DNA from: Scenedesmus sp. PABB004
Taxonomy: Eukaryota
Length of the DNA stretch: 64,000 nucleotides
Assembly (NCBI GenBank): GCA_014905635.1
Contig: JABVCE010000012.1
Location: 496,001 to 560,000 of the forward strand
Direction: 5' to 3'
Shown here: piece after piece, positions 10,635-62,486 of the stretch
Layout: every line of letters begins with the position of its first letter
Position numbering within the stretch: position 1 is the stretch's first letter
Program-made: the position numbers and the translations under genes
The notes under the pieces: generated by a model
Database searches by the model: none
What the model was told of the DNA's origin: nothing
Seen by the model: only the letters and a program-made list of their open reading frames with translations

Positions 10635-11656
10635 TCAGTTGGGCTGCGCACGGATCCACGCGACCACGGCGTCGTGGCCTTTGTCTGCCGCCGCGCGCTC
10701 GCACCTGGCGCGCCACCACGGGCAGCCGTTGGTGCGCAGCCAGCGCAGCGCCTCCAGGTGCCCGTGCTCAGCTGCCGCCGCGCACGCCTGCGCGTCCCAT
10801 GGCGCGGGCTTGGCCTGGGCGCGCGCCCAGCGCAGCATCTCCACGTCGCCGCACCGCGCAGCGAGGAAGCACACACCACACCATGAGTCACCCCACGGCA
10901 GCGGCGGCGTCTGCGCGCGCGCCCAGCGCAGCACGCCCAGCTGCCCGCCGTAGGCTGCTGCTTTGCACACGAGCCGCAGGTCAAGCCTAACGTCGCGCGC
11001 CCACTCCAGCACGGCGAAGTGGCCGTGCTTCGCTGCTTCCCAGCACACGCTCTCATTCTCATACTCGCCGCCCATGTCGCAGCCGGCGCGGTAGAGCCAC
11101 GCCAGCCCCGCCACGTCGCCGCACACCGCGCGCGCCCTGGCCAGCCGCCGCTGCTGCCGCCGCTGCCGCTGCTGCTGCCAATCATCATCCTGCGCCGCCC
11201 GCCAGGCCTCCTGCACCGCCGCCAGCGGCAGCTCGGGGCAGCGCACTGAGATGGCACCGCGGAAGCGCTCGCGCGCGGCCTTGCATACCAGCCTGGCGGT
11301 CCACGCCTGCAGCGCCGGCGGCAGGAGGCTCAGGACGTGGAGCACGAGAGGCTCGGGCAGGTCCCGCCACAGGCTGCTGGCGCGCCGGGGCGGGCGGGCG
11401 TGCCGTGGCGGACAGCGGGCGTGTGGGCGGCGGTGAGGCGGCGCACGGCGCCTGTTGTGGCTGCTGGCTGTGGCACGCGCATGGCTAGACAGCGCCAGCC
11501 AAGGCGTCGGCGGAGCGCCCACCTCGGCGCCGCCTCTGCCCCAGCCGGTGCCTCGCCCGCCGCCGCTACGGCCGCCGTTGCGGCTGCCGCTGCGGCCGCC
11601 GCGCGCGCGCGCGTGGTCGACCCGGCGCAACGCTCGCCCTCCAGCGCAGCAGACAT
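10635..11656 (-). CDS. F-box-like/ankyrin-repeat protein, cassette copy A (2 exons)
   Basis: Exon 1 [10 protein letters not shown]...AEAAPR, then a conserved intron, then [19 protein letters not shown]...[10 protein letters not shown] (F-box-like) and repeats such as [20 protein letters not shown]. Confidence 0.8.
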
Positions 11657-12515
11657 GGCGCCACCTGACGGCCTGCGGGTCAGCAGCAGGCGGGGCACCG
11701 GCAGCGGCGGGCGCGTGCGCGGGCGGCGCGAGCGCAGCAGCAGCGCGTGCCCCCGCCCCGGCGCGGCGGCGCGGGGACGGGCCTGCCAGCGACGCCCGAG
11801 GCGTGCGAAACCAGCGGCCCACGCCACACGCCCGCCCGCCGCGCACCGCCGCAGCCCCCGCCGCCCGCAGCGGGCGCCGCGCAGCGCGGCCCGCCGCCGC
11901 CCTCCCCGCCTGCCTGCCCGCGCGGTTCGCCTGGCGCTGCTCGCGGCGGCACGGCCTGGTCACCAGGCGTCCGCAGGTCCGCGCCCCGCCTGGCAGGGGC
12001 GCGCGCCGCGGGCGGGGGCGGCCCTGCGCGGCGGCGGCGCGGTGCGTGCGGGGGCTGTGGGCGGCGCGGCCGGCGCTTGTGCGTGTGCGTGAGCGGCAGG
12101 GGCGCTGAGGGGGGCGGCTGTGGGCGTCGGCGGGCCGGCGCGCGCGCAGGGGGTCTCCTCGGCGGCGGCGCGGGCAGCCGGCCGGGCGCGGCGCCCGCGC
12201 CCTGGGCCCTGTACCACCGCCCGCATGCCGCGGCTGCCGGGACGGCGCGGCGCGACGGCGTGCGGCCGCCGCCACAGCACAGCGACGGCGCGGGAGCGCG
12301 ACCCCCGCCCAGGTGCTCTGCGTGCGCGGTCGGCCGGTTGCCAGCGCGCGCCGCCCCGCCGCCGCCAACTTCCCTCTCCCTCTCCCTCGGCACGCACGCG
12401 CGCGTCACTCGCCGCAGGCAGCGCCCCGCGCACGAACGCGCGCCCAGCCACGGCCTGCCGCGCCTAGCCCTGATCTCAGCCCGCGCCCGAGCTGAGATGA
12501 TCAGACTCGTCAGTG

Positions 12516-13492
12516 TCAATCGTCCGGCGACGCAGGCTGCGCCCGGACCCACGCGACCACGGCCTCGTGGCCGTTTTCCGCCGCCCAATACTCGCACTTG
12601 GCGCGCCCCCACGGGCAGCCGTTGGCCCGCAGCCAGCGCAGCGCCTCCAGGTGCCCCTCCCGAGCCGCCGCACAGCACGCCCACTCCGTCCACGGCGCGG
12701 GCTCAGCCTGGGGGCGCGCCCAGCGCAGCATCTCCAGGTCGCCGCGCCGCGCAGCGCTGTAGCACACCCCTACATCCGAGCGACCCCAGGGCACCGGCGG
12801 CGTCTGCGCGCGCGCCCAGCGCAGCACATGCAGCTGCCCCCCCCCCCCTCGGCTGCTCCATAGCACACGGCCAGCAGGTCCAGCCCCTCGCCGCGCGCCC
12901 ACTCCAGCACGGCGAGCTGGCCTGCTTGCGCTGCTGGGTAGCACACGTCGTCCATGTCGCAGCCAGCGGCGCGCAGCCAGGCCAGCCCTGCCACGTCGCC
13001 GCACGCCGCGCGCGCCTGAGCGATGGGTGGGAGCCGCCACTGCTGCTCCCACCCATCATCCTGCACCGCCCGCCAGGCCTCCTGCACCGCCGCCAGTGGC
13101 AGCTCGGGGCAGCGCAGCGAGACGGCCGTCGCGCCGCGGAAGCGCTCGCGCGCCGCCTTGCACACCAGCTTGGCGGCCCACGCCTGCAGGGCCGGCGACA
13201 GGAAGCCCAGGACGTGGAGCACGAGCGGCTCGGGCAGCTCTGGCAGCAGGGCGCTGGTGCGGCGGGGCGAGCGGGCGAGCGGTGAGGCGGCGCCTGCTGC
13301 CGGCGGTGGTGGCTTGTGGGCAGCGCGTGCAGCGCCAGGCAGCAGCAGCCAGGGGGCACCAGCACCAGCAGCAGCAGCGGACCCACCTTGGCGCCGCCTC
13401 TGCCCCAGCCGGCGCCTCGCCTGCCGCAGCTGCGGCCGCAGCGCGCGTGTGGTCGGCCCGGCGCGCCGCTTGCCCGCCGGCGCAGCAGACAT
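12516..13492 (-). pseudogene. F-box-like/ankyrin protein, copy B; frameshifted at a poly-C run (~12837-12849), so pseudogene or assembly error
   Basis: The N-half (ORF 12770..13672) and C-half (ORF 12516..13052) of the family protein are in different frames, switching at the homopolymer. Confidence 0.7.
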
Positions 13493-14519
13493 GGTGCCAC
13501 CTGACAGCCTGCGGGCCACCAGGGAGCAGCAGGCGGGGCACCGGCAGCGGCGGGCGAGCGCGCGCGGGCGGCGTGAGCGCGGCAGCAGCGCGTGCCCCCG
13601 CCCCGGCGCGGCGGCGCGGGGACGGGCCTGCCAGCGACGCCCGAGGCGCGCGAAACCAGCGGCCCACGCCACACGCCCGCCCGCCGCGCACCGCCGCAGC
13701 CCCCGCCGCCCGCAGCGGGCGCCGCGCAGCGCTGGCCGCCCGCCAGTGCCCTCCCCGCCTGCCCGCGCGCGCCCGGCTCGCCTGGCGCTGCGCTGGGCGG
13801 CACGGCCCGACCGTCAGGCGCCCGCAGGGGCGCGCCGCGGGCGAGGGGGCGGGCGCTGGGCGGCGGCGACGCGGTGCGTGCGGGCGCCGTGTGGGCGGCG
13901 CGGCCGGCGCTTGTGCGTGTGCGTGCGTGTGCGGCAGGGGCTGAGGGCGGCGGCTGTGGGCGGCGGGGCGGCGCGCGCGGGGGCCTCCTCGGCGGCGCGC
14001 GGCGGGCCGCCGGCCGGGCGGCGCCTGCGCCCTGGGCCCTGCACCGCCACCGCCCGCTCGCGTGTGTCGTGTGCTACCTTTACACGGGCTCTCGTTGTAC
14101 ACTGGAACCAGGGTCAACATTGGGAGGGAAAGGCGGCGCGCGCGCGCGGCGGCGCCGACGAGGGCCGACACGCGCCGGCGAGGGCCGCGCGGTGGTGCAA
14201 CAGTGCGCGCGCGAGCCGACATGACGATGGAAGAAGGGCCGCAGCGGCGGCGGCGCACACGGCGCCGTGCCGGCGGACAGACGGATGCCTAGTGTCAACG
14301 CTGCGTGCGCAGGCGGCACGCGGCCGCGCGCCCCTGCCCGCCCGCCGCCGCCGTCGCGCGGCGGGCGGGCCACGGCCCGTCGCCAAATACAAGCTGCTTA
14401 TTGCCGCTGCCAAAACCGGTTCAACTTGGGGTTTTTTCTTTCTTTCTCGACTGCGCCGCCACACACCACTGGCATTGGACGAGCCGCCACACTCCAGAGC
14501 CCGCCCCGCCCCGCCCGCC

Positions 14520-16980
14520 TCACATCGCGGGCGCGAGCGCGGGCGCGTGCGCCTGCTGCGGCAGGCCGCGCGGCGCGCCCGCCGCGCCGTCGGCGAGCGC
14601 GCTGAGCAGGCTGCTGCGCATGACGTCGAGGCGGAGGAAGACGGTGGACCGCCCGATCGCGCCGCGCGTGTCCTCGTTCGCAAAGCTCGCCGTCGCGACG
14701 ACGTCGGCCCCAAACTTGCGCTGCAGGCGGCACCGCGCGCGCAGCAGCGCGCGCATCGCGACGCCGCACGCCGCCGCGCCCGCGAGCTGCAGCGCGACGT
14801 GCCCGCCGCCGAGCACGTTGTGGATGATGGCGTTGCTCAGCTTGTTCACGTCCGTGTGCGCGCCCGCCTTGAGCAGCGGCGCGGCGGCGGCGGCGCCGGC
14901 GCTGGCTGCGCCAGCGCCCGCGCACGCGCCGCCGTCCGCCGCGGGCGCGCCGTCGCGGCCGGCCATGCACGCGGGCACGCCCACGGGCGGCGGCAGCGCG
15001 ACCGCGAGCTGCGCGGCGCTGGCCTTGGCGACGACAAAGCCCAGCGGCGGGTCGGCCGCGTCGCCGAGCTGCGCCGCGGCGCCAGGGCGCGCAAAGGGCA
15101 CAAACACGAGCTCCTCGTCGCTGCGCGGCGGGGGCGCCGCGTGCGTGGGCTCGCCGCCGGCGAGGCCCGTCAGCGCGGCCGCCGCGCCGACGCCGGCCGC
15201 GCCCGCGGCGGCCATGTGGGCGTTCACGTAGAAGCGCGCCACGGCGAGCGACTTGGCCGCGACGTGCGTCGCGGCGGCCGCCTGGTCGCCCGCGCGCGAG
15301 AGCGAGAGCAGCAGGCAGCTCCCGTGCCGGCTCACGACCTTGGCGAGCGCGCCCGCGGCGTCCTTGACGCACGAGAGCGACGAGACTGTCACCGTGCCCG
15401 CGTCGCGCGCCGCGTGCGCGCCGCCGTGCCCGCGCGGGCGGCTCGCGGCGCTGAAGCCGCTCGCCACGCTGCCGGCGCTGCTGCCCGGCCGGCTCGCGCC
15501 GGCGTACGGCCCGTGCGGCGGCGGCGGCGCCCAGCCCGACGCCATCGGCGTCGACGCGCCGCTGCCCGCGTCGCCGGCGTGCTCGCCGCCGCCGGGCGGC
15601 GCCGCAAAGGACGGCGGCGGCGCCGCGCCGGGGTGGTGGTGGTGGCCGGGGAAGGCCCAGGTCGCCGGCACGGCGGCAAAGGGCGGCAGGCCCACCGGGA
15701 CTGGGACAGGGTAGTAGACCGGCACAGGCACCTGCAGCGCCGCCGCCTGGTGCGCGTGCCACGCAGCCATGTGGTGCTGCTGCTGCTGCCACGCCGCCGC
15801 CGCCGCGGCCTGCTGGTGCTGCCAGGCGGCGAGCGCCGCCGGGTCGGGCGGCGGCGCGTGCTGCTCCTGCTGCTGCGGGTGCCAGTACGGCGGGGGCGGC
15901 TGCTGTCCGCCGGGGTACGGCTGCGCCTGCGCGGCATACTCGGGCTGCTGCTCCTCGCACACAAACTCCTGCTGCTGCTGCTGCTCCTCGGCCGCATACT
16001 GCTGCTGCTGCTGCTGCTGCTGCTGCCCCTCAACCTCAAACTGCTGCGCCTGCAGCCGCTCCTCCAGCGCCTCCTCGGCCGCCGGCGACTCAGGCGACTC
16101 GCACGCGCCCGCGCAGCTGCCGCTGCCGCTGCCGCTGCTGCGCGCGCCGAGGCTGCGCGCGGCGAGCGCCGTGGCGGCCGCCGCGGCGAGGTAGGCCTGG
16201 GGGTAGAACTCCGCCGACGCGGCGCTCAGCTGCGACGCCCGGCCGCTGCTGCCCTCGGACTGCGCGCACTCCTCGCTGCGCGCCGCGCGCGACTCGCCGG
16301 CGGCCGCCGCCTGCGCCGCGCCGCCGTCGCGCGGCGCGGCGTCCGCCTCCACCGCCGCCGCCGCCGCCGCCGCGTCGCCGCCGCTGACGGCCACGACCGC
16401 GAGGGGGACCTGGATGGGGACGGAGCCGATGTGGATAGTCGTGCTGCCCGGCCGCGCCAGGTCAGCGGCGCCGCCGCCGAGCAGCAGCGCGAGGTCGGAC
16501 GCGCTGCTGGAGGCGCTGAGCTCGGGGCTGGCCGTGCCCGCCACGCTGGCGGCGAGGCCCGGCGGCGCGCCCTCGCCGCTGCCGAGCGGCAGCGGCGGCG
16601 ACTGCGCGCCGAAAGGCACCTGGTCGAGGCTGCGCCGCGAGCTGGGGGCCAGGGCCGGCCTGCGTGCACAGGCGGGCGGCGCATGGGCGCGTCAGGCGCG
16701 CGCGGGCGGGGCGGCGGGCGCCGGAGGGGCCCGGGCGCGCGCGGGTGCCCGCCCGCCACAGACAGCGTGGCCGCAGGCCACGCTGTCCCGCCCGGCCCCG
16801 TCCCCGCGCGGCGCGGCGGGGCACGCGACCGCACGCGCACCTCGCGGCCGCGGCCTGGGGGGCGCGGCATGGCCGGCCCTTGCTCCTGTGGGCGTCGGCG
16901 GGCCCGTGCGCCGGAGTGCTCTTGGAAAGCTTGCTGCCGAGCCGCCCGAGGTCGGGCTGGATGCTAATGCGCGGCAGCAT
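14520..16980 (-). CDS. PAM2-motif, Q/P-rich protein with two C-terminal SpoVS-like (Alba-type fold) domains; 2 exons
   Basis: Exon 1 MLPRISIQ... joins in phase (intron ~16660-16842) to ORF 14520..16619. Domain 1 VTVSSLSCVKDAAGALAKVV...AAKSLAVARFYV and domain 2 LKAGAHTDVNKLSNAI...ALLRARCRL...ADVVATASF resemble bacterial SpoVS. SQLSAASAEFYP is PAM2-like. TGTAA at 14080-14084 (-). Confidence 0.7.
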
Positions 16981-17466
16981 CGTGGCGCGCCGCTCTGGAG
17001 CGGGCTGGCGCGGCCGCCTCCAGCAGGTTCGGCCCGCTGCTGCGGCGGGCGCTGCTCCGATGCCGCGGGCGAGCGGCTCGAGCTGTGAGAGATGGCTCGA
17101 AACGAAACTGGAGCGGGCGCGGGGAGCGGCCTCGGCCAAACCGCAGACCTGCGGCGTGTGGCATTTTTGCGGGCGACCGCTGGACTCCCCGTGTTCGCGC
17201 TGTCGCGGGCAGCGGCGCCGGCGGCGCGCATCGCGGCCGGATCCGCAGACAATCCGATCGTCGCTCAGCCCGGCGCACGCCGCACGCCGGGACGTGCCGT
17301 CCCCGCGCGCCATCACCGCCCGCTCCCGACCTGCTCCTGCGGTCCCTGGTCCCCGTCGCACGCCCGTCACGCGCCTCTCGACTGCCGCCCGCCGCGGCGC
17401 AAGCTCGGGCGCACCGGGCGCCCCGCCAGCGCCAGCGGCGCGACGGCAGCAGCGGCGTCGGCGGCG

Positions 17467-18911: not shown

Positions 18912-18950
<39 letters not shown>

Positions 18951-19453: not shown

Positions 19454-20026
19454 GGCGGTGCAGGGCCCAGGGCGCAGGCGCCGCCCGGCCGGCTGCCCGC
19501 GCCACCGCCGAGGAGCCCTCCCCGCGCGCGCCGCCCCGCTGACCACAGCCGCTGACCTCGACCCCCCTGCCACACACGCACACGCACAAGCGCCGGCCGC
19601 GCCGCCCACACAGCTCGCGCGCGCACCGCGCCGCCGGCGCCACACGCCCGCCCGCGGCGCGGCCCTGGCCAGGCGGGGCGCGGGCCTGCGGGCTCCTGAC
19701 GGCCGGTCCGTGCCGCCCAGCGCAGCGCCAGGCGAGCCGCGCGCGCGGGCAGGCGAGGAGGGCAGCGGCGGGCGGGCCGCGCTGCGCGGCGCCCGCTGCG
19801 GGCGGCGGGGGCAGCGGCGGTGCGCGACGGGCGGGCTTAATGGGTGATCACGCAGGCTTGCGCGCCCCGGGCGCCGCTGGCAGGCCCGCCGCCGCGCGGA
19901 CACGCTGGGCCGGGAGCGGGCGCCGCGCGCTGCTGCTGCTGCGCTCACGCCGCCCGCGCTCTCGCCCGCTGCTGCCGGCGCCCCGCCTGCTGCTCCCTGG
20001 TGGCCCGCAGGCTGTCAGGTGGCACC
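19454..20026 (+). promoter_or_regulatory. Conserved ~570-bp upstream block of the F-box/ankyrin cassette; also at ~11657-12216, 13493-14050, 37520-38095, 43816-44408, 53222-53790, 55727-56303, 60044-60628 and 61855-62425 (all -)
   Basis: All copies begin near GGCGGTGCAGGGCCCAGGGCGC, contain a CACACGCACACGCACAAGCGCCGG-like segment, and end with a GGCCCGCAGGCTGTCAGGTGGCACCATG-like segment. Confidence 0.8.
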
Positions 20027-21049
20027 ATGTCTGCTGCGCCGGCGGGCAAGCGGCGCGCCGGGCCGACCACACGCGCGCTGCGGCCGCAGCTGCGGCATGC
20101 GAGGCACCGGCTGGGGCGGAGGCGGCGCCGAGGTGGGCCCGCTGCTGCTGCCGCTGGTGCCCCCTGGCTGACGCTGCTGCCTGGCGCTTCACGTGCTGCG
20201 TTCAAGCCCTCCCACTGCCGGCAGCAGGCGCGGCCTGACCGCCCGCCGCCCGCCCCACCCGCCCGCGCCGCTAGCAGCCTGTGGCGGGACCTGCCCGAGC
20301 CGCTCGTGCTCCACGTCCTGGGCTTCCTGCCGCCCGCCCTGCAGGCGTGGGCTGCCAGGCTGGTCTGCAAGGCGGCGCGCGAGCGCTTCCGCGGCGCCAC
20401 CGTCATCTCAGCGGGCTGCCCCGAGCTGCCGCTGGCGGCGGTGCAGGAGGCCTGGCGGGCGGAGGGGGGTGACGTGGCGCAGCAGCGGTGGCTGGTGCAG
20501 GCGCGTGCCGCGTGCGGCGACGTGGCGGGGCTGGCCTGGCTGCACGGCGCCGGCTGCGACATGGGCGGCGCGTGCTGGCAAGCAGCGGAGCACGGCCAGC
20601 TCGCCGTGCTGGAGTGGGTGCGCGACGAGGAGCTGGACCTGGCGGGCGTGTGCGGCGCAGCAGCTCGCACTGGCCACATCGCCGTGCTGGAGCGGGCGCG
20701 CGGTGAGGGGCTCAACCTGGGGCGCGTGTGCGAAGAAGCAGCCTCTGGGGGGCAGCTGGCGGTGCTGCGCTGGGCGCGCGCGCAGACGCCGCCGCTGCCG
20801 TGGGGCAGTGTGTGCTACAACGCCGCAGAGCGCGGCGACCTGGAGATGCTGCGCTGGGCGCGCGCCCAGGCCGCGCCAGCGCCGTGGGACGTGTGGGCGT
20901 GCTGGGTGGCGACTCTATGCGGGCACCTGGAGGCGCTGCGCTGGCTGCGCGCACACGACTGCCCGTGGTGGCGCAGCAACTGCGAGGACGTGGCGGCAGA
21001 CAGCAGCGACGAGGCCATGTTGGCGTGGATCCGGGCGCAGGACGACTGA
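20027..21049 (+). CDS. F-box-like/ankyrin-repeat protein, copy C (the only + strand copy)
   Basis: MSAAPAGKRR... start; [20 protein letters not shown]-box-like motif; repeats ending [16 protein letters not shown]...WIRAQDD*. Confidence 0.8.
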   Translation: MSAAPAGKRRAGPTTRALRPQLRHARHRLGRRRRRGGPAAAAAGAPWLTLLPGASRAAFKPSHCRQQARPDRPPPAPPARAASSLWRDLPEPLVLHVLGFLPPALQAWAARLVCKAARERFRGATVISAGCPELPLAAVQEAWRAEGGDVAQQRWLVQARAACGDVAGLAWLHGAGCDMGGACWQAAEHGQLAVLEWVRDEELDLAGVCGAAARTGHIAVLERARGEGLNLGRVCEEAASGGQLAVLRWARAQTPPLPWGSVCYNAAERGDLEMLRWARAQAAPAPWDVWACWVATLCGHLEALRWLRAHDCPWWRSNCEDVAADSSDEAMLAWIRAQDD

Positions 21050-24600: not shown

Positions 24601-26111
24601 AGCATGGCGTACGCGGCGGCCGCGGGCGCGGGCGAGCACCTGCCGTTCCTCAGCAAGCTGGAGAGCCTCGCCAGCAGCGCGGTGCGCTCCGCCGGCAACA
24701 CGGGCGCCGACCTAATCGTAGTGTACACCGCCACGGGTGAGCGCCGCGCCGCCGCCGCGCCGTCCCGGGCTGCGCGCCAGGGCGGCTTGCAGGACCGCGC
24801 GGCAGCGGCGCGCAGGACAGCGGCGCGACTCGCAGGACCGCGCGCGGGCGGCCGGCTGCCAGGCCTGCGCCGTGCGCCAGCAGGGCCGCGCTCGGCCGAC
24901 GCGCCGCGCCCGCCACACCGCGCCCGGCGCGCCGCGCGCCGTCAGGGCGCACCGCGCAGCTGGTGGCCAAGTACCGCCCGCCCATGCCCATCCTCACGCT
25001 CGTGGTGCCGCGGCTCATCAACGATGGAATCAAGTGGCGCCTCGAGGGCAGGTGCGCCGTGGCGCCGGGCGCTGGGTGCTGGCGGCACTGCGTCGCCCCC
25101 ACTGGCGCCGGCGCCGGCGCCGGCACCTCGCCCGCTGCCGTGCCCGCGCCCTGCTCACTCCGCCCGCGCGGCGCCGCCGCCAGGTCCACCGCGCGCGCGT
25201 GCCAGCTCACGCGCGGCCTGCTGCCCATGCTGGCCACGCCGGGGCCCAACGGCGACGCCGTGCTCGAGGCCGCGGTCATCCAGGCGGCGCTGGCGGGCCT
25301 CGTGGCGCCGCGGCACCACGTGGTCGTGCTGCAGCAGGTGCACGAGGATTTCTGCGTGAAGGTGCGCCGAGGCGCCGCCGGCCGGGGCCCTGCCGCGACC
25401 CGTGCACGGGCACCTGCGGCTTGCCTGTTCTGCGCCCGCGCGCCCGCCGCCCCACCACACACCGCTGCCCTCGCCCCCCTCGCTTCGGCAGGTGCTCAGC
25501 CTCGACGCGACCGGGCGGCGCGTGCTCGGCTCCAACCTGCGCCTGCCGACCGCGGCGCCGCGCAGCACGCTGCGCCGGACCGCCTCGCGCAGCAGCAGCA
25601 CGGGTGCGCGCCGCGTCGCAGCGCCGCGTCGCCGCGCACGCCGGCACCGCCGCGCCGCCGCTCCCTGTGCCGACGCGGTGCCTGGCGGCCGCTGCCCCCG
25701 GCGCTGCGCAGGCGCGCTCATCGACAGTGACGGCGAGGTGGACGAGGAGGACGCGGAGGAGGCGGAGGCGGACTACCTCTCGGCCAGCGACGGCAGCTTC
25801 CAGCAGTCGGCGTCGATGCTCTACGACCAAAACGTGAGCCAGCCGCCCGTCCGCGGCGGCACCGCCGACCGCCGACGCGCGCGCGAGCACGGGCCGGCCG
25901 CCGACGCGCGCGTGCGCCCGCGCGCCGCCCCCGCGCGCAGGCAGGCAAGGCCGCGCGCAGCGCGCTGAGCGCGCGCGGCGTGGCGGTGCCGGCGCTCAAG
26001 GCGGCCGGCCTGGGCGGCGCGCACAAGCCGGCGAGCCCCGACACGCCGATTCGGGGCAACTCGATTGACCAGAACTCCAAGCGCGTCACCATCAGCCTCG
26101 CCGACGCGTGA
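21700..26111 (+). CDS. PYK: Pyruvate kinase (plant cytosolic-type subfamily), tandem copy 1, multi-exon
   Basis: [88 protein letters not shown]; last exon ends ...VTISLADA* at 26111. Confidence 0.9.
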
Positions 26112-42941: not shown

Positions 42942-43069
42942 CTGAGCTGGGCGCAGCCGGCGGCCGGGCCGGCGCGCGAGGATGCAACATTGACTGCGTT
43001 AACGCTGTCGCGTGCCACGAGGTCGCATCAACGCCGCTGGTTGCCCCGCGCGCGGGGCAACCTGCGTCG

Positions 43070-49756: not shown

Positions 49757-50193
49757 TGCGGTGCGGCGCGGGCGCGGCAGCAACGGGCGCGGTGAGGCGA
49801 CGACGTGCGTTCGGCGGGCGGTCGAGGACTGCGGCGGCAGCGGCGCGGCGGCGAGAGCGTGTGGCGCCGGGGGCTGTGCGTGCGGCGGTGCGGGCACGGC
49901 GGGGAGGCTGAACTAAGGAGTCTCCTCGCAACACCCTAGTGTGCGCGGAGGCGCGTGATCGCGGCTGGGCGCGGCCCGTCGCTCGCCTTGGTCAGCCATG
50001 CGCGCGCGTTGAGAGCGGCGCGCGTGTGGGACACGCTGCGGTGGAACTGGCTGCGCGATGCCCCAACCTGGCGCGCCGGCCTGGAGGAGGCCGCGTCGCC
50101 GGCGCCGCGCGGCGCGTTGCTCGCGGGGCGAGCGCGGTGAGGCTCCGGAACAGCCGCGACGCTCGCTCGCCGCCGGCTTCCACACCGCCGCCG

Positions 50194-51513
50194 CTAGCGC
50201 CCGCTGCCGCCGCCGCCGCCCGCCAGCGCGCACCCGCCGCCGGGCCGGGCCTTGGCGCCCGCGCGCGGCACCGTGCCCGACGTCGTCGCAGCGGCGCCCG
50301 CCGCCATCGCCGCCGGCCCGGCCGGCGGCGCCGCTGGGTGCACGTTCTCGACCATCGACTGCGCGCGGGCGAGCCCCGCCTGCACGGCGAGCCAGAGCAG
50401 GGAGTAGAGCATGTAGGCCGACAGCAGAACGCCGCCCGCGATGGCCAGCACCGCGAGCAGCGCGCCGAGCGCGACGCAGCACTCGCCGCCCGCGCCCGCG
50501 CTCGCGAGGCACTCTCCGAGCAGCGGCGCGCCGCCGCCGCCGCCGCCGTCGAGGCAGAGCAGGCAGCAGGGGCAGCAGCTCGCGTCGGGCAGCAGCGCGG
50601 CGCCGGGCAGCCCGCACGCGCGGCCCGCGAGCAGCGCCGCGCTGGTGGCGAGCCCGAGCAGGCCCAGCGTCACCACGCCGTTGAGCACGTGCACCACGCC
50701 GTACGGGACCAGCAGCTCGCCGCCGCCGCGGCCGCCGCGGCCGCCGCCGCCCGGCGCGGGGCTGCCGGGCGGCGGGCCCGGCGCGGGCGACGCGCCCGGG
50801 CCACCGCTGCCGCCGCCGTCGCTGCTGGTGGTGAAGAGCGCGTCTGTGATGGGCACAAAGCCGGCCAGAAAGACCGCGCCAGACATCAGCACGGCGAAGA
50901 GCACAGCCAGCGTCGCGGGGCTGCCCAGCAGGCTCGCCCACCAGAGGCGGCGATACTGATACCTGCGCGCGCGCGCCGGCGGCGGCACGAGCGGCGGCGG
51001 CGTCTGCGCGACCGCGGCCACGGCTGCGCCCGGTGGCGGGGGCGCCGCCGCCTGGCCCCCGGTGGGCGCGCCGTGTGCCGCGCTGCGCAGGCGCCGCCTG
51101 CGACGCGCCTGAACTTGCACACTTCGCACTCAAAGCAGGCGTCCGCGCGGTGCGCGCTGTCGCGCCAGTGCTGCAGACACTGCCGGTGCACGTGCCTGCG
51201 CGCGGCGGCCGAGGCGGCGGCGCCATGGGCGGCGGCCGTGGCCCCGGGGCGCGGAAGCGCGGCCGAGCGCGCGCCTGCAAGCGCGGTCCGCGCTTGCACA
51301 CCGCGAGCTGCCCGAGCAGAGGCAGGGGCAGATGAGGGGGTTGCCTGGGTCGGCCGGGCTGCGCAGGTCATCCTGCTCAAGGCAGATGCGGCACGTGCCC
51401 AGCGCCTCCGGCGGCGGCGCGTCTGGCTCGACCTGCAGCACCAGCTCCTCTGCGCCCGCGGCGCCGCCGCGCTGGAAGCGCTTGGCGAGCAGCGGCGCCG
51501 CCTCTCCCTCCAT
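50194..51513 (-). CDS. RING-CH (RINGv/MARCH-type) membrane E3 ubiquitin ligase, 3 exons
   Basis: CRICLEQDD...LICPCLCSGSSR|HVHRQCLQHW...CEVCKF (C4HC3), followed by hydrophobic TM segments. Confidence 0.88.
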
Positions 51514-52143
51514 GGCCGCGCGCGCCGCTGCCGCGGGCGCCGGGCGGGCCTGCGTGGCAGCGGCAGCAGCGGCGGTGAGCGCCGAAGGCAGCGCCGCGCC
51601 CAGCCCGCGCCGCGGCACACGCAGCAGCACACGGGCACCGCATGCGCGTCGTCCAGCGGCCAGGCGGGGCGCGCCCGCGGCCCCTGGCGCCCGCACGCCG
51701 CCGCCGCGTGCGCTGCTGCCCCGCACCGCGCACGCCTCGCTGCGCACCGGCTGCGGGACGGGCGCGCGGTGAGGGCGTGAGGACGTGCAAGGCGGGCCCG
51801 ACAGGCCGTGCCGCGGCCCCTGCTGCCGGCGGGCTGCGCGCGTGGCGGGCGTGCGGCGGGCCGCCGCCGGCGGCGCTCGCCTCGCGCGGCGTCGGCGCGT
51901 GTGGGGCAGCGCGCGAGCTGCTGAGGCGGTTGTGTGTGTGTGTGTGTGTGATGCTGTGGCACTAGCGACTGGTTGTGGGGTGCGCCGCCTGAACCGCGCT
52001 GCGCCTGACGACGCAGCGGCCTCGCCGCGCGATGCAACACACGCGCCCAGCGTCGCTTACACCAGCAGCCGCTGAGCCGCGCGAGTGACCGGCACGCGCC
52101 CGATCGCCGCCACTTCAACTGTCAACGCGCCCGCACGGCCAGG

Positions 52144-53221
52144 TCAGCGGCCGTCGTCGGGCGCGGCCGGCTGCGCCTGGATCCACGCGACCACCGCGTC
52201 GTGGCCGTTGTCCGCTGCGCCTCGCTCACACCATGCGCGACGCCACGGGCAGCCGTTGGCGCGCAGCCAGCGCAGCGCCTCCAGGTGCCCGTGCGCAGCC
52301 GCCGCCCGGCCCGCCCGCCCGTCCCACGGCGCGGGCTCGTCCTGGGCGCGCGCCCAGCGCAGCATCTCCAGGTCGCCGCGCTGCGCAGCAAAGTAGCACA
52401 CACCGATGTCCCAGTGCACCGGCGGCGTCTGCGCGCGCGCCCAGCGCAGCACCGCCAGCTGCCCCCAAGAGGCTGCTCCTCCGCACACGTCCCGCAGGGG
52501 GAGTCCCGCGCCGCGCGCCCACTCCAGCACGGCGAGCTGGCCATGCTGTGCTGCTGCCGGGCACACGTCCCACAGGTCGAGCCCCTCGCCGCGCGCCCAC
52601 TCCAGCACTGCGAGCTGGCCATGCTTTGCTGCTTCTGCCCAGCAAACAAAGCCCATGCTGCAGCCGGCGCCGTGCAGCCAGGCCAGCCCCGCCACGTCGC
52701 CGCACGCCGCGCGCGCCGTGACCAGCTGCCGCTGCAGCTGCTGCTGCTGCCACCCGGCACCCTGCACCGCCCGCCGCGCCTCCTGCACCGCCGCCAGCGG
52801 CAGCTCGGGGCAGCGCAGCGAGACGACCTTGGCGCCGCCGAAGCGCTCGCGCGCCGCCTTGCAGACCAGCTTGGCGGCCCACGCCCGCAGGGCCGTTGGC
52901 CAGAGGCTCAGGACGTCGAGCACGAGCGGCTCGGGCAGCTCCGGCAGCAGGGCGCTGGCAGCAGGGCGGGCAGGCAGTGAGCGGGGCGGGCGGCGAGCGG
53001 TGAGGCGGCGCCTGCTGCCAGCGGTGGTGGCTTGCGGGCAGCGCGTGCGGCCGCGTGCGGCGCCGGGCACCAGCCAGGGGACACCGGAAGCAGCAGCAGC
53101 GGACACACCTCGGCGCCGCCTCCGCCCCAGCCGGCGCCTCGCCTGCCGGCGCTGCTGCTGCCGCCGCACGCGCGCGCATGGTCGGCCCGGCGCGCCGCTT
53201 GCCCGCCGGCGCAGCAGACAT
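52144..53221 (-). CDS. F-box-like/ankyrin-repeat protein, copy F
   Basis: MSAAPAGKRR exon; LLPELPEPLVLDVLSLWP; ankyrin-like repeats; TGTAA at 52057-52061 (-). Confidence 0.8.
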
Positions 53222-53892
53222 GGTGCAGCCTGACAGCCTGCGGGCCATCAGGGAGCAGCAGGCGGGGCGCCGGCAGCAGCGGGCGAGCGCGCGCGGGCGG
53301 CGTGAGCGGGGCAGCAGCAGCGCGCGGCGCCCGCCCCCCCGGCGCGGCGCGGCGGCGGGCCTGCCAGCGGCGTCCCGGGCGTGCATGCCCAGCGATCCAT
53401 GCGACACGCCCGCCCGACGCGCCGCACCGCTGCCCCCGCCGCCCCAGCGGGCGCCGCGCAGCGCGGCCCGCCCGCCGCTGCCCTCCGCCTGCCCCCGCGC
53501 CCGGCTCGCCTGGCGCCGCGCTGGGCGGCACGGCCTAGTCTCCAGGCGCCCGCAGGTCCGCGCCCCGCCTGGCCAGGGGCGCGCCGCGGGCGGGGGCGGG
53601 CGCGGGCAGCGGCGGCGGCGGTGTGCGCGGGAGCTGTGGGCGGCGCAGCCGGCGCTTGTGTGCGTGTGTGGCAGGGGCGCTGAGGGCGGCGGCTGTGGGT
53701 GGCGGCGGGGCGGCGCGCGCGCGGGGGTCCTCGGCGGCGGCGCGGGCAGCTGGCCGGGCGGCGCCTGCGCCCTGCGCCCTGCACCGCCGCCCGCGTGCCG
53801 CGGCTGCCGGGACGGCGCGGGCCGGCGCCGCCGCCAGTTGCCGAGCGCGCCCCTCACTACCGCCACCAACTCGCCGTCAGCTCGCCCGCTGA

Positions 53893-54652
53893 CGGGCGCG
53901 GGCGGCGAGTGCTGCGTCGCGCTCGGCGCGCTGCTCGCGGTGCTGGCCATCGCGGGCGGCGTGCTGCTGTCGGCCTACATGCTCTACTCCCTGCTCTGGC
54001 TCGCCGTGCAGGCGGGGCTCGCCCGCGCGCAGTCGATGGTCGAGAACGTGCACCCACCCGCCGCCGCCGGCCGGGCCGGCGGCAACGGCGGCGAGCGCCG
54101 CTGCGACGGCGGCGGGCGCCGCTGCAACGACGTCGGGACCGGCGCCGCGCGCGGGCGCCAAGCCCCGGCCCGGCGGGGGCGCGCGCCGGCGGGCGGCGGC
54201 GGCGGCGGCAGCGGGCGCTAGCGGCGGTGTGCAAGCCGGCGTCGAGCGAGCGTCGCGGCTGTTCCGGCGCCTCACCGCGCTCGCCCCTCAAGCAACGCGC
54301 CGCGCGGCGCCGGCGACGCGGCCTCCTCCAGGCCGGCGCGCCAGGTTGGGGCATCGCGCAGCCAGTTCCACCGCAGCGTGTCCCACACGCGCGCCGCTCT
54401 CAACGCGCGCGCATGGCTGACCGGGGGGAGCGACGGGCCACGCCCAGCCGCGATCACGCGCCTCCGCGCACACTAGGGTGTTGCGAGGAGACTCCTTAGT
54501 TCAGCCTCCCCGCCGTGCCCGCACCGCCGCGCGCACAGCCCCCGGCGCCACACGCTCTCGCCGCCGCGCCGCTGCCGCCGCAGTCCTCGACCGCCCGCCG
54601 AACGCACGTCGTCGCCTCACCGCGCCCGCTGCTGCCGCGCGCCGCGCCGCAC
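53893..54652 (+). pseudogene. Inverted duplicate of 49761-50498 (3' end of the RING-CH gene plus downstream intergenic DNA)
   Basis: Encodes GAGGECCVALGALLAVLAIAGGVLLSAYMLYSLLWLAVQAGLARAQSMVENVHP, as in the RING gene; the reverse-complement match continues through the noncoding CTAGGGTGTTGCGAGGAGACTCCTTAGTTCAG. Confidence 0.9.
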
Positions 54653-54723: not shown

Positions 54724-55726
54724 TCAGGGGTCCCCGTCGTCGTGCGCGGCCGGCTGCGCCTGGATCCACGCGACCACCGCGTCGTGGCCGTTGTCCGCCG
54801 CGCCTCGCTCACACCATGCGCGACGCCACGGGCAGCCGTTGGCGCGCAGCCAGCGCAGCGCCTCCAGCTGCCCGTGCGCAGCCGCCGCCCGGCCCGCCCG
54901 CCCGTCCCACGGCGCGGGCTCGTCCTGGGCGCGCGCCCAGCGCAGCATCTCCAGGTCGCCGCGCTGCGCAGCAAAGTAGCACACACCGATGTCCCAGTGC
55001 ACCGGCGGCGTCTGCGCGCGCGCCCAGCGCAGCACCGCCAGCTGCCCCCAAGAGGCTGCTCCTCCGCACACGCCCCACAGTTCCAGCCCCTCACCGCGCG
55101 CCCACTCCAGCACAGCAACCTGGCCGGCACGCCCTGCTTCCAACCCAACCCAGTCCATGTTGCAGCCGGCGCCGCGCAGCCAGGCCAGCCCGGCCACGTC
55201 GCCGCACGCCGCGCACGCATTGGCCAGCAGCCCCTGCCGCCACCAAGCATCACCCTGCACTGCCCGCCACGCCTCCTGCACCGCCGCGAGCGGCAGCTCG
55301 GGGCAGCGCAGCGAGACGACCTTGGCGCTGTGGAAGCGCTCGCGCGCGGCCTTGCAGACCAGCTTGGCGGCCCACGCCCGCAGGGCCGGCGGCAGAAAGC
55401 TCAGGATGTGCAGCACGAGCGGCTCGGGCAGCTCTGGCAGCAGGGAGCTGGCGGCGCGGCGGGGCGCGGCGGGCGGGCGGCGACGGTGAGGCAGCGCGCG
55501 GCACGTGCTGGACCTGGCTGTGGCTCGCTGCTCAGCGCGCGCCTGGCCAGCAGCAGCCGGGGCGCTCCCAGCAGCAGCAGCGAGCGCCCTACCTCGCCGC
55601 CTCCTTGCCAGCGCCAGCCACCGCCGCCTTGCGCTGCGCTGCCGCTGGCGCCGCCGCGCTCGCTGCGGCGGCCCTGGCGCGCGTGGTCGGCCCGGCGTGC
55701 CGCTTGCCGTCTGGCGCAGCTGACAT
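54724..55726 (-). CDS. F-box-like/ankyrin-repeat protein, copy G
   Basis: MSAAPDGKRH exon; [20 protein letters not shown]-terminal half almost identical to copy F. Confidence 0.8.
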
Positions 55727-56406
55727 GGTGCCACCTGACAGCCTGCGGGCCAGCAGGGAGCAGGGGGAGGCGCCGGCGGCGCGGCGAGCGGCGCGGCGTG
55801 AGCGCGGGCGGCAGCAGCAGCGCCAGGCGCCCCCGCCCCGGCGCGGCGGTGCGGCGGTGGGCCTGCCAGCGGCACCCGGGGCGCGCAGGCCCCGCGGCCC
55901 AGGCCACACGCCCGCCCGCCGCGCACCGCCGGTGCCCCCCGCCGCCCGCAGCGGGCGCTGCGCACGCGGCGTGCCCGCCCGCTGCTGCCCTCCCCGCCTG
56001 CCCGCGCGCGCGGCTCGCCTGGCGCTGCGCTGGAAGGCACGATCCAGTCACCAGGCGCCCGCAGGTCCGCGCCCCGCCTGGCCAGGGCGCGCCGCGGGCG
56101 AGGGGGCGGGCGCTGGGCGGCGGCGGCGCGGTGCGTGCGGGAGCTGTGCGGGCTGCGGCCGGCGCTTGTGCGTGTGCGTGTGTGGCAGGGGGGCGAGGGC
56201 GGCGGCTGTGTGGGCGGCGGGACGGCGCGCGCGGGGGGCCTCCTCGGCGGCGGCGCGGGCAGCCGGCCGGGCGGCGCCTGCGCCCTGGGCCCTGCACCGC
56301 CGCCCGCTGCGGCACGCGCGGGCCGGCTGTGCGCGTTCAGCCTGTCAACAGGTTGCCAGCGCGCGCCGCGTCCGTCGCGCCCCGCACGACCCCCGCGCGG
56401 CACGCG

Positions 56407-58388: not shown

Positions 58389-58440
58389 GGCCGTGCTGAG
58401 ACAATGGTCACCTCCCAGCAGCCTAGAAGACCCCAGCGGC

Positions 58441-59075
58441 TCCATGGCCGCGCGCGCCGCTGCCGCGGGCGCCGGGCGGGCCTGCGTGGCAGCGGCAGCA
58501 GCGGCGGTGAGCGCCGAAGGCAGCGCCGCGCCCAGCCCGCGCCCCGGCACACGCAGCAGCACACGGCACCGCATGCGCGTCGTCCAGCGGCCAGGCGGGG
58601 CGCGCCCGCGGCCCCTGGCGGCGCCCGCACGCCGCCGCTGCTGCCCTGCACCGCGCACGCCTCGCTGCGCACCGGCTGCGGACGGGCGCGCGGTGAGGGC
58701 GTGAGGACGTGCAAGGCGGGCCCGACAGGCCGTGCCGCGGGCGCTGCTGCTGCCGGCGGGCTGCGCGCGTGGCGGGCGTGCGGCGGCGCTCGCCTCGCGC
58801 GGCGTCGGCGCGCGTGTGCGGCAGCGCGCGCGTGCTGCTGAGGCGGGTGTGTGTGTGATGCTGTGGCATTAAACGAGCGACTGGTTGTGGGGTGCGCCGC
58901 CTGAACCGCGCTGCGCCTGACGACGCAGCGGCCTCGCCGCGCGATGCAACACACGCGCCCAGCGTCGCTTACACCAGCAGCCGCTGGGCCGCGCGAGTGA
59001 CCGGCACGCGCGCAATGGCCGCCACTTCAACTGTCCACGCGCCCGCACGGCCAGGTCAGGGGTCCCCGTCGTCGT
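58441..59075. repeat. Direct duplicate of ~51509-52160 (RING-CH start codon/5' region plus ankyrin-gene 3' UTR)
   Basis: Near-identical from TCCATGGCCGCGCGCGCCGCTGCCGCGGGCGCC through GCCGCCACTTCAACTGTC...GGCCAGGTCAG. Confidence 0.9.
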
Positions 59076-60043
59076 GCGCGGCCGGCTGCGCCCGGATCCA
59101 CGCGACCACCGCCTCGTGGCGTCTGCGCGCCGCGCCTCGCTCACAGTCGACGCGACGCCACGGGCAGCCGCCGGCGCGCAGCCAGCGCAGCGTCTCCAGG
59201 TGCCCGCCCTCAGCCGCCTGCCTGCACGGGCCCTTGCCCCACGGCGCGGGCTCGGCCTGGGCGCGCGCCCAGCGCAGCATCTCCAGGTCGCCGCGCCCTG
59301 CGGCAATGAAGCACACGCCAAGCACCTTGTCGCCCCACGGCAGCGGTGGCGTCTGCGCGCGCGCCCAGCGCAGCACGCCCAGCTGCCCGCCCACGGCTGC
59401 TGCAAAGCACACGCAGCTCAGGTCCAGCCCATCGCCGCGCGCCCACTCCAGCACGGCGATGTGGCCGGCTAGCGCTGCTGCCCAGACCACGCCGTGCGCC
59501 ATGGTGCCCACATAGTGGTGATAAAAATCGCCCAAGTCGCAGCCGGCGCCGCGCAGCCAGGCCAGCCCCGCCACGTCGCCGCACGCCGCGCGCGCCTTGG
59601 CCAGCCACTGCTGCTGCCAACTGCCACCCTGCACCGCCCGCCAGGCCTCCTGCACCGTCGCGAGCGGCAGCTCGGGGCAGCGCAGCGAGACGACGGTGGC
59701 GCCTCGGAAGCGCTCGCGCGCCGCCTTGCAGACCAGCTTGGCGGCCCACGCCTGCAGGGCCGGCGACAGGAAGCTCAGGACGTGGAGCACGAGCGGCTCG
59801 GGCAGCTCCGGCAGCGGGCTGCGGGCGACGCGGGCGGCGCGGGCGGGCGGGCGGGCGGGCGGGTGCGGCGGTGAGGCAGCGCGCGGCGCGTGCTGGAGCT
59901 GGCCGTGGCTCGCTGCTCAGTGCCCGCGCGACCAGGAGCGGCAGCCGGGGCGCCCCCAGCAGCAGCAGAGCGCCCCACCTCGGCTCGTCCCCAGTGCCGC
60001 GCGCCGCCGCCTCGCGCTGTGCTGCCGACGGCGCAGCAGACAT
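59056..60043 (-). CDS. F-box-like/ankyrin-repeat protein, copy H
   Basis: MSAAPSAAQREAAARGTGDEPR exon; [18 protein letters not shown]; repeats ending ...AHDDGDP*; TGTAA at 58969-58973 (-). Confidence 0.8.
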
Positions 60044-60903
60044 GGCGCCACCTGACAGCCTGCGGGCCACCAGGGAGCAGCAGGCGGGGCACCGGCAGCA
60101 GCGGGCGAGCGCGGCGTGAGCGGAGCAGCAGGGGTTCAGGAGCGCGGCGCCCGCCCTTGCCCCGGCGTGGCACGCGGCGGCGGGCCTGCCTGCCAGCGGC
60201 GCCCCGGGCGTGCATGCCCAGCGGTCCATGCGACACGCCCGCCCGCCGCGCACCGCCGCTGCCCCCGCCGCACGCAGCGGGCGCCGCGCTGCGCGGCCCG
60301 CCCGCCGCTGCCCTCCGCCTGCCCCCGCGCGCCCGGCTCGCCTGGCGCTGACCTGGGCGGCACGGCCTAGTCTCCAGGCGCCCGCAGGTCCGCGCCCCGC
60401 CTGGCCAGGGGCGCGCCGCGGGCGGGGGCGGGCGCGGCGCGGCGGCGGCGTGGTGCGCGCGGGAGCTGTGGGCGGCGAGGCCGGCGCTTGCGTGCGTGTG
60501 CGTGTGTGGCAGGGGTGCTGAGGGCGGCGGCTGTGGGTGGCGGCGGGGCGGCACGCGCGGGGGCCTCCTCGGCGGCGGCGCGGGCAGCCGGCCGGGCCGC
60601 GCCTGCGCCCTGGGCCCTGCACCGCCGCCCGCGTGCCGCGCGGGTGCCGGGCGCGGCGCGGAGGAGGCGGCGTGCCGCCGCCGCCAGCGCCCGGTGACGG
60701 CGCGGGTGCGCGACCCGCCCAGGAGCGCTGCGTGCGCGGTGTGCCGGTTGCCAGCGCGCCGCCTCCCCGCCGCCAACTTCCGCTCCCTCGCCACGCGCGC
60801 ACGCACGCATCACGCCGCAGGCAGCGCCCCAGGCACACGCGCGCGCCCAGCCACGGGCGGCCTGCCTGGCCTCACCTAAATCTCAGTCGGCGTCTGAGCT
60901 GAG

Positions 60904-61854
60904 CTAATAGAATCCCCAGTCCGGCTCGTCGTCGGGCGCGGTCGGCTGCGCCCGGATCCACGCGACCATGGCCTCGTGGCCGTTGCGCGCCGCGCGCTCG
61001 CAATCGCCACGCTCCCACGGGCAGCCGTTGGCGCGCAGCCAGCGCAGCGCCTCCAGCTGCCCGTTCACAGCCGCCGCCCAGCACACAAGCTTGCCCCAAG
61101 GCGCGGGCTCGGCCTGGGCGCGCGCCCAGCGCAGCATCTCCACGTCGCCGCGCCCTGCGGCGTTGTGGCACACGCTGCCCCACGGCAGCGGCGGCGTCTG
61201 CGCGCGCGCCCAGCGCAGCACCGCCAGCTGCCCGCCCACGGCTGCTGCCTCGCACACGCGCCTCAGGTCCAGCCCCTCGCCGCGCGCCCACTCCAGCACG
61301 GCGATCTGGCCTGCCCGCGCCGCTTCCCAGACCACGCTGTCATGCACTGCATACACGACGCCCATGCTGCAGCCGGTGACGCGCAGCCAGGCCAGGCCCG
61401 CCACGTCCCCGCACACAGCGCGCGCCTTGGCCAGCCGCGACTGCCGCCCTGGCTCATCCTGCATCGCCTGCCAAGCCTCCTGCACCGCCGCGAGCGGCAG
61501 CTCGGGGCAGGCTGCTGAGACCACTGTGGCGCCGCGGAAGCGCTCGCGCGCCGCCTTGCAGACCAGCTTGGCAGCCCACGCCTGCAGGGCCGGCGGCAGG
61601 AAGCTCAGGACGTGGAGCACGAGCGGCTCGGGCAGGTCCCGCCACAGGGAGCTGGCGTCGCAGGCGGGGCGCGCCGGGCGGGCGGGTGCGGCAGTGAGGC
61701 AGCGCGCGGCGCGTGCTGGAGCTGGCTGCCGCTCCCTGCTCAGCGCCCTGGCCGGCAGCAGCAGCTGCAGGCATCGCCAGCGCGCCCACCTCGGCTCGTC
61801 CCCAGCGCCGCACGCCGCCACCTCGCGTTGCGCTGCCGCCGGCGCAGCAGACAT
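60904..61854 (-). CDS. F-box-like/ankyrin-repeat protein, copy I
   Basis: [41 protein letters not shown]; ends ...PDDEPDWGFY*. Confidence 0.8.
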   Translation of the reverse strand: MSAAPAAAQREVAACGAGDEPRWARWRCLQLLLPARALSRERQPAPARAARCLTAAPARPARPACDASSLWRDLPEPLVLHVLSFLPPALQAWAAKLVCKAARERFRGATVVSAACPELPLAAVQEAWQAMQDEPGRQSRLAKARAVCGDVAGLAWLRVTGCSMGVVYAVHDSVVWEAARAGQIAVLEWARGEGLDLRRVCEAAAVGGQLAVLRWARAQTPPLPWGSVCHNAAGRGDVEMLRWARAQAEPAPWGKLVCWAAAVNGQLEALRWLRANGCPWERGDCERAARNGHEAMVAWIRAQPTAPDDEPDWGFY

Positions 61855-62486
61855 GGTGGCCCCCGACAGCCTGCGGGCCAGCAGGGAGCAGGGGGCGGGG
61901 CGCCTACAGCAGCGGGCGAGCGCGCGGGCGGCGTGAGCGCAGCAGCAGCAGCGCGCGGCGCCCGCCCCCGCCCCGGCGCGGCGGCGCGGCGGCGGGCCTT
62001 CCAGCGGCGCCCGGGCCGCGCAGGCCCAGCGGCCCACGCGACGCGCCCGCCCGCCGCGCACCGCCGGAGCCCCCGCCGCCCGCAGCGGGCGCCGCGCAGC
62101 GCTGCCCGCCCGCTGCTGCCCTCCCCGCCTGCCCGCGCGCGGCTCGCCTGGTGCTGCGCTGGGCGGCACGGCCTGGTCTCCAGGCGTCCGCAGGCCCGCG
62201 CCCCGCCTGGCCAGGGGCGCGCGGCGGGCGGGGGCGGCCGCTGGGCGGCGCAGCGCGTGCGGGAGCTGTGTCGGCCGCGGCTGGTGCTTGTGCGTGTGCG
62301 CGTGTGGCAGGGGGGCTGAAGGCTGCGGCTGTGGGTGGCGGCGGGGCGGCGCGCGCGGGGGCCTCCTCGGCGGCGGCGCAGGCAGGCGGTCGGGCGGCGC
62401 CTGCGCCCTGGGCCCTGCACCGCCGCTCGCCGCGGCCGGGGCACGGCTCGGGCGGTCGCGGTCGCGGGCTGTTGCAGTCGCGCGCG

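Follow-up and report, generated by a model that had tools for sequence, protein, structure and literature searches.

Background

Among the closest described counterparts of the gene family considered here are the F-box superfamilies of plants, whose proteins, as far as the cited accounts go, carry the F-box at the N-terminus and a variable binding domain at the C-terminus; their genes cluster locally, include pseudogenes and show weak or positive selection in the part that binds (PMC3719486, PMC7829749). The same features recur in a 64,000-nt window of the genome of the green alga Scenedesmus sp. PABB004 ("the window" denotes this whole stretch, with a GC content of 75-83% throughout), where a small gene encoding a probable F-box-like motif and a run of ankyrin repeats is found in nine copies along with its upstream DNA. 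The algal family departs from the plant families in three respects: 1) the binding domain consists of short-repeat ankyrins; 2) it resides in a 39.8-Mb genome of 78.5% GC; and 3) the whole upstream region has been copied and kept alike. A short-repeat ankyrin binding domain is, to our knowledge, rare among plant F-box families. The nematode F-box superfamily likewise comprises clustered, fast-evolving substrate receptors with a birth-and-death mode of evolution.

Fusions of an F-box-type Skp1-docking motif to target-selecting ankyrin repeats are also seen in Legionella AnkB and in the ankyrin-PRANC proteins of poxviruses and Orientia. These proteins are pathogen effectors, the poxvirus type has its F-box-like part at the C-terminus, and we liken them to the algal proteins by architecture alone. 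Ankyrin repeats of the algal flavour, often together with an F-box, occur widely among protists and giant viruses, with Balamuthia and Pandoravirus as examples, and the Pandoravirus proteins P0120, P0011 and P0090 carry the PF12937 domain at the N-terminus, in line with a presence in giant viruses that had been mentioned when the units were first noticed. As far as the cited account goes, the unstable half of the Pandoravirus chromosome is enriched in tandem duplications of ankyrin, MORN and F-box genes (bioRxiv 10.1101/230904). The Pandoravirus and Balamuthia proteins resemble the algal units in repeat flavour and in their N-terminal F-box-like domain. They differ in that identity is just 34-44% and lies mostly in the repeats, and in that the algal genes have introns and a host-like composition; furthermore, a conserved linker following the F-box sets the algal module apart (of 1.84 billion proteins, a mere 63 representatives match motif plus linker at E<=1e-3). 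In Tetradesmus obliquus, the protein OEZ85_008323 (named in UniRef as "F-box domain-containing protein") shares the N-terminal module, with an E-value of 3.5e-23 to the nine-copy profile, but unlike the units it is a single 146-aa model.

A sequence-only reading of the window had described the units as a locally mobilising family of DNA-level duplicates, possibly a nonautonomous mobile element. Here we set out the anatomy of the units, the proteins that they are predicted to encode, and the modes by which they may have spread.

Results and discussion

A whole gene and its upstream DNA form the repeated unit

An entire small gene, together with ~560-590 nt of non-coding upstream DNA, makes up the repeated unit. 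Nine such units (A to I; Table 1) lie between 10.6 and 62.4 kb of the window, each 1,343-1,652 nt long, and pairs of them share 75-84% nucleotide identity. Their recurrence, as first noticed in the sequence, is borne out by further searches. The motif GGCGGTGCAGGGCCCAGGGCGC occurs 8 times with <=3 mismatches against an expectation of 0.07, a count reached in 0/100 shuffles, and a ninth occurrence, in unit D, bears a 1-nt deletion within the motif. Repeat finding, self-BLAST and a profile hidden Markov model built from the copies each yield exactly nine units, and none of the three detects any additional family fragment in the window. In an alignment of the nine copies that takes in 300 nt on either side, column identity averages 0.13-0.43 ahead of the motif, climbs to 0.71-0.88 at it and falls again past the stop codon.

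In each unit, 556-592 nt of non-coding DNA precede an ATG in conserved context. Exon 1 is short in H and I (65 nt) and longer in A, D, E, F and G (110-134 nt); it is followed by an intron of 138-162 nt, present in all nine copies, and by an exon 2 of ~740-830 nt, which encodes the putative F-box-like motif and 5-6 ankyrin repeats. The inferred splice model uses a common donor, CCGAG/GT..G, and a common acceptor, CAG/C (the slash marks the junction), which would bring the start codon and the F-box into a single reading frame in 7/9 copies, always in phase 2; the NCBI models of relatives have an identical junction. The intron is thus retained, as had been claimed, but it is not especially conserved: exon 1 and the intron together are the most divergent part of the unit (58-89% identity, whereas the upstream DNA has 84-92% and exon 2, with unit E left aside, 80-91%) and fall into two deep types, A-F versus G-I, with ~60% identity between them.

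Five of the nine units (A, F, G, H and I) are intact, and the remaining four (B, C, D and E) are damaged. B and C have a frame-shifted exon 1 in common; that of C is out of frame with the shared splice sites, and its reading frame stays open when unspliced. The deletion in E removes profile positions ~1195-1413, and an additional ankyrin repeat of 26 residues (78 nt) is present in C, D and F.

The upstream block shows no coding signal: the copies differ by 1-2-nt indels, and no frame has a consistently low ratio of nonsynonymous to synonymous substitution (dN/dS). A phase bias in alignment columns 900-1107 failed a block-by-block check, and an Rfam search of the window returned zero matches. 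A pyrimidine-rich tract ending in CCCGCAG/G is located ~19 nt before the ATG in 8/9 copies (20000-20026 in C), and a donor-like GGCG/GTGCGC lies ~210 nt upstream in 7/9; this arrangement suggests a candidate intron in the 5' untranslated region (UTR).

Ankyrin repeats joined to a probable F-box

The presence of ankyrin repeats in the family proteins is secure. Units A, C, F, G, H and I match the Pfam profile Ank_4 with 23.7-39.7 bits, above its curated cutoff of 22.7. An AlphaFold2 model of exon 2 of unit F has a mean predicted local distance difference test score (pLDDT) of 86.8, with 87-98 over the repeats and 57-74 at the N-terminus, and a Foldseek search of the PDB with this model recovers 27 matches at E<=1e-3, all of which are ankyrin or DARPin chains.

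An F-box at the N-terminus is probable on sequence comparison. When a profile of the nine N-termini is compared with the sequences of the PDB, the top 6 of the 8 matches are F-box proteins, aligned at their F-boxes (E-values: FBXO2, 6e-4; MAX2, 7e-3; FBXO42, 0.095), and of 50 proteins related to this N-terminal module, 15 match the Pfam family F-box-like (best 2.3e-5) and 12 match F-box (best 2.4e-6). Structure prediction speaks neither for nor against this: the isolated 100-aa N-terminal model is weak (pLDDT 73.4; predicted template modelling score 0.38), it has 0 Foldseek matches in the PDB at E<=0.001, and in a VIA wide search with it the best score (Z 5.2) goes to unrelated helical chains, while none of the 50 matches listed is an F-box chain. 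The proposed F-box-like and ankyrin architecture is supported in both halves, the ankyrin half by Pfam and the fold model and the probable F-box-like half by profile homology. On our best reading, the family is specific to the PABB004 lineage, and in its proteins an F-box-like motif at the N-terminus would be followed by a conserved linker and then by 5-6 short ankyrin repeats.

Unit edges and the traces of block duplication

The copies arose at the DNA level, as had been proposed, since both the intron and the upstream DNA are retained, and some of them were copied within larger blocks that took in flanking DNA or a whole tandem pair. Three head-to-tail pairs are seen in the window, rather than the two originally noted: B->A, with a spacer of 297 nt, I->H, with 277 nt, and G->F, with 935 nt. 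The block 10642-14048, which spans B->A, is colinear with 59084-62424, which spans I->H, over 3.4 kb; hence, this pair was duplicated as a pair. The spacers of these two pairs and the downstream flank of D share a mutual identity of 81-87%. A vestige of a lost unit beyond the spacer-like flank of D was considered and rejected, the local alignment score being no better than that of shuffles.

Homology past the stop codon varies among the copies. It ends at the stop codon in A, C, E and G, for which the original description holds; B, D and I have a common tail of ~244-297 nt, and in F and H homology runs on for 636 nt at 91% identity. The 5' side is more uniform: homology common to 9/9 copies begins at about GCGGGCGGCGGTGCAGGG, and all nine 5' edges lie within ~30 nt of one another. 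The claim of a common start stands to that extent, but the start has no single exact base, being nested over ~10-100 nt: homology extends ~20-25 nt further in A, D, E, F and H, ~100 nt in E-F, and ~700 nt in A-H. Homology of the flanks follows relatedness, in that the A-B pair goes with the H-I pair, F with H, and E with F.

Gene conversion and divergence among the copies

Stretches of sequence have been exchanged between copies, the 78-nt repeat has been gained or lost, and some copies have decayed. Identity along the units is mosaic, reaching 99% in A-B, 97-98% in B-C and 98-100% in F-G within tracts, against ~80% pair-wide, and 5/28 pairs are significant in a run test at p<1/2000 (i.e. they beat all 2,000 permutations). 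Because identity is mosaic and the nearest neighbour changes along the unit, we attribute this to gene conversion between copies. The two deep types of exon 1 and intron, set beside upstream regions and exons 2 that are alike, form the pattern to be expected of such conversion in a duplicated family.

Over exon 2 of the six copies in which it is intact, pairwise dN/dS is 0.67-1.28, with a proportion of synonymous differences of 0.12-0.22, and all indels among them are in frame. Split by class, dN/dS comes to 0.47 in the F-box (55 codons), 0.69 in the ankyrin framework (98 codons) and 1.48 at the predicted surface (35 codons), the last being a class chosen after the alignment was seen. The fast turnover that had been suggested for the family is upheld by these ratios together with the 4/9 damaged copies, the changes in repeat number and the gene conversion.

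A probable birth-and-death family of local duplicates

We consider it probable that the units form a birth-and-death family of putative substrate receptors of Skp1-cullin-F-box (SCF) ligases, shaped by local segmental duplication and gene conversion. This stretch would be prone to duplication, and the copies would have spread within it through local duplication, whether tandem or segmental (proximal), and through small rearrangements, with no mechanism encoded by the unit itself. Their common 5' edge would be the upstream limit of the originally duplicated segment, comprising promoter and 5' UTR, and would have been kept visible through conversion, possibly also through selection. The predicted F-box would dock on Skp1, while the variable ankyrin surface would bind and present targets and may be under diversifying pressure, like that of other fast-evolving adaptor families. 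Both homology of the flanks beyond the gene and mosaic identity, which mark a duplicated gene family with concerted evolution, are observed, and the same stretch holds other duplicates, namely the pyruvate kinase genes (84%), the CRAL_TRIO genes and a 760-nt inverted duplicate (93%).

Several observations weigh against this account of a duplicated family of F-box receptors: 1) nine starts fall within ~30 nt of one motif, which random duplication breakpoints would not predict. 2) The copies sit among unrelated single genes. 3) The best T. obliquus matches of the CRAL_TRIO and pyruvate kinase genes (OEZ85_005184 and OEZ85_005187, respectively) sit just 3 locus tags from each other on the same contig, and in the window units D and E and other DNA separate these genes; this spacing hints at units inserted into a conserved backbone. 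4) The Pfam F-box-like profile scores 17-18.5 bits (E 0.0017-0.005), under its cutoff of 24.3, in 5/6 proteins scanned (F excepted), and aligns over profile positions 1-30 or 2-34 of 47. 5) An overall dN/dS near 1 is also expected from neutral decay, and the surface class was delimited post hoc.

On a rival reading, the unit is a nonautonomous mobile cassette of DNA, defined at its 5' end and leaky at its 3' end. It would be copied in a circle-mediated or rolling-circle-like process and inserted locally, often behind the 3' end of a co-oriented gene. The common start and varying 3' ends suit such a cassette, as does unit D with its full spacer and no partner, which looks like one period of a tandem array set alone. 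The insertion preference finds some echo in B and D, whose 5' edges begin 32 and 53 nt after a TGTAA of the upstream gene. This pentamer, the usual green-algal poly-A signal, occurs just 9 times in the window on both strands, far below the number of genes; 4/9 of these occurrences adjoin units, and a TGTAA lies 83 nt past the stop codon in both F and H. Similarly, the 5' edge of unit I lies ~60 nt past the stop of a same-strand SH3-domain open reading frame (ORF), the T. obliquus locus tags suggest that the backbone genes adjoin there, and HT031_003976, ~50 gene models away, retains part of the upstream block at similar likeness.

Against a cassette stands the want of any terminal structure in the window. 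No target-site duplication or terminal inverted repeat was found at the unit ends; direct or inverted repeats of 8-12 nt across both junctions are absent from 6/9 copies, and the other three (F, G and H) have one 9-nt GC-rich junction match each, at differing positions. No transposase was found among the 226 ORFs scanned in the window. A Helitron-like rolling-circle element would start with TC, end with CTRR next to a subterminal hairpin and have a Rep/helicase partner in its genome; the units begin with GGCGG..., and ORF scans of the window showed no Rep or helicase. The 5' homology fades over 10-100 nt, nested by relatedness rather than cut at a sharp terminus, long non-unit flanks are common to pairs, and non-unit genes nearby have been duplicated likewise. 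The repeat content published for the genome, as far as the cited account goes, is just 1.31% (PMC12571836). The sequence-only reading had correctly reported the lack of poly-A tails, inverted repeats, target-site duplications and transposase, but its suggestion of a nonautonomous element is not supported, given the nested 5' and ragged 3' edges, the flanks that track relatedness and the duplication of other genes. Its idea of local mobilisation fares better, inasmuch as local spread is real, although proximal or segmental duplication accounts for it equally well. We therefore regard a mobile cassette as unlikely, and the corresponding proposition, that the ~1.6-1.9-kb unit, with or without the ~280-nt spacer, is a discrete self-propagating duplicon copied from a fixed 5' point, as improbable to the same degree.

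A giant-virus insert was rejected, given the intron-bearing genes of host composition (PIKK, pyruvate kinase) between the copies. The units also lack the marks of a retrocopy, with the intron in 9/9 copies, no poly-A, a common 5' end and a ragged 3' end, and those of a DNA transposon or an element like a miniature inverted-repeat transposable element, with no terminal inverted repeats or target-site duplications found at their ends and with termini that are neither sharp nor identical.

It is similarly doubtful that the units are largely functionless duplicated DNA drifting neutrally, with their likeness and open frames owed only to GC-biased conversion and to the scarcity of stop codons in DNA of 80% GC. 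The pairwise dN/dS range and the damage to nearly half of the copies are compatible with this view, and upstream sequence is conserved to much the same degree as non-unit flank (92% versus 91% between F and H), so its conservation needs no special function, though it may have one. Drift alone sits poorly, however, with the exclusively in-frame indels of the intact exons 2, with the 49 of 100 residues of the N-terminal region that are the same in 9/9 copies, with dN/dS that varies by class, with splice sites and phase kept in 7/9 copies, and with the retention of the module in other algae, e.g. in T. obliquus OEZ85_008323.

Least probable of all are old dispersed paralogs at long-fixed positions, with edges produced by promoter and coding selection alone and without recent duplication: a star-like protein tree of 6 window copies and 7 other rows (8/10 inner branches unresolved) and the two deep types of exon 1 and intron fit that history, whereas non-functional flanks common at 81-91%, tracts of 98-100% and the 93% inverted duplicate in the G->F spacer bespeak recent events.

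Neighbouring genes and clustering along the contig

The units are interspersed among unrelated genes, as had been noted at the outset; these encode a PIKK kinase, a SpoVS-like protein, a leucine-rich repeat protein, two pyruvate kinases, an Ephrin_rec_like protein, two CRAL_TRIO proteins, a SnoaL_2 protein and an SH3 protein (Table 1). The SpoVS domain is known chiefly from bacteria and is unusual for a green alga.

Parts of two NCBI gene models of Scenedesmus sp. PABB004, HT031_004026 and HT031_004028, are encoded in the window at 99.6-100% identity; exon 2 of unit A and the C-terminal part of HT031_004026 agree at 100%. HT031_004026 (window 10635-16682) fuses the SpoVS-like gene with B and A, and HT031_004028 (window 33818-41020) fuses an upstream gene with D and the Ephrin-receptor-like gene. 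For the genome as a whole, the cited account, as far as it goes, gives 39.8 Mb, 78.5% GC, 7,092 genes and 1.31% repeats (PMC12571836). Fused models of this kind may help account for the low reported gene count.

Beyond the window, the family remains regionally confined. Twelve of the 14 named PABB004 models with the module lie on one 1,235,393-bp contig, where their locus tags span 003954-004038 (some tags being deduced from accession order), and the other two lie on one contig each. HT031_004038 is a further copy just beyond the window. Because HT031_003976 retains part of the upstream block, upstream DNA plus gene constitutes the repeated unit throughout a cluster of >20 copies. In T. obliquus, OEZ85_008323 lies on a contig (11,077,961 bp) different from that of the pyruvate kinase and CRAL_TRIO orthologues. 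Metagenome contigs gave no match by protein scan or by the DNA pattern around the ATG. Among sequencing runs, a search turned up no RNA run and just three runs from freshwater metagenomes, each with 5-7% of the sampled words.

Table 1. Positions of the nine units, their flanks and other features in the window
Feature	Position	Strand	Remarks
Unit A	10635-12218	-	Fully intact; downstream member of the B->A pair
Unit A parts	upstream 11657-12218; exon 1 11523-11656; intron 11374-11522; exon 2 10635-11373	-	
Unit B	12516-14048	-	Damaged: ankyrin-region frameshift; exon-1 frame off versus the family splice model
Unit C	19454-21049	+	Sole + strand copy; exon 2 intact, 6 repeats
Unit D	36438-38089	-	Damaged: ankyrin-region frameshift; acceptor-like CAG ahead of the ATG gone
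Unit E	43065-44407	-	Damaged: internal deletion of most ankyrin repeats; original stop gone
Unit F	52144-53788	-	Fully intact, 6 repeats
Unit F parts	upstream 53222-53788; exon 1 53109-53221; intron 52955-53108; exon 2 52144-52954	-	
Unit G	54724-56301	-	Fully intact; final ~300 nt 98-100% identical to F (conversion tract)
Unit H	59056-60626	-	Fully intact; exon 1 short, at 65 nt; the downstream unit in the I->H pair
Unit I	60904-62424	-	Fully intact; short exon 1 (65 nt)
B->A spacer	12219-12515	-	297 nt; shares homology with the I->H spacer and with the 244 nt right after D
D downstream flank	36194-36437	-	Homologous to the tandem-pair spacers; no second unit after it
F downstream flank	51508-52143	-	91% identical to the H downstream flank, 58440-59055
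Inverted duplicate	53893-54652	.	760 nt of the G->F spacer; 93% to 49761-50498 (97-98% in parts)
PIKK-type kinase gene (FAT, PI3_PI4_kinase domains)	4913-10600	+	End convergent with, and adjoining, unit A
SpoVS (PF04232) ORF	14523-16691	-	E 9.6e-9
Two tandem pyruvate kinase genes	21720-25379, 27011-30643	+	~84% DNA identity
Two tandem CRAL_TRIO genes	44841-45803, 46502-47282	-	Best named match T. obliquus OEZ85_005184

Conclusions

The units are best read as an ordinary, fast-changing duplicated gene family, not as a new kind of genetic element, with a modest chance of a more special mechanism of spread. Were the latter true, a duplicon pasted locally, in tandem or behind co-oriented 3' ends, in a genome almost free of transposons, would have built a cluster of >20 copies over ~85 gene models, and it would have done so by a circle-mediated or rolling-circle-like DNA mechanism that is undescribed for host adaptor genes of green algae. 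For work on PABB004 itself, gene counts and family analyses are distorted, because the public models fuse units to their neighbours.

On the preferred view, Scenedesmus sp. PABB004 presents a large, regionally confined expansion of probable F-box-ankyrin adaptors in a very compact green-algal genome. Conversion combined with fast change at the likely binding surface usually points to a conflict in which pathogens or viruses take part; proteins of this kind are also encoded by giant viruses. A role in defence may be envisaged for the family, and its units are candidate antiviral or regulatory E3 adaptors.

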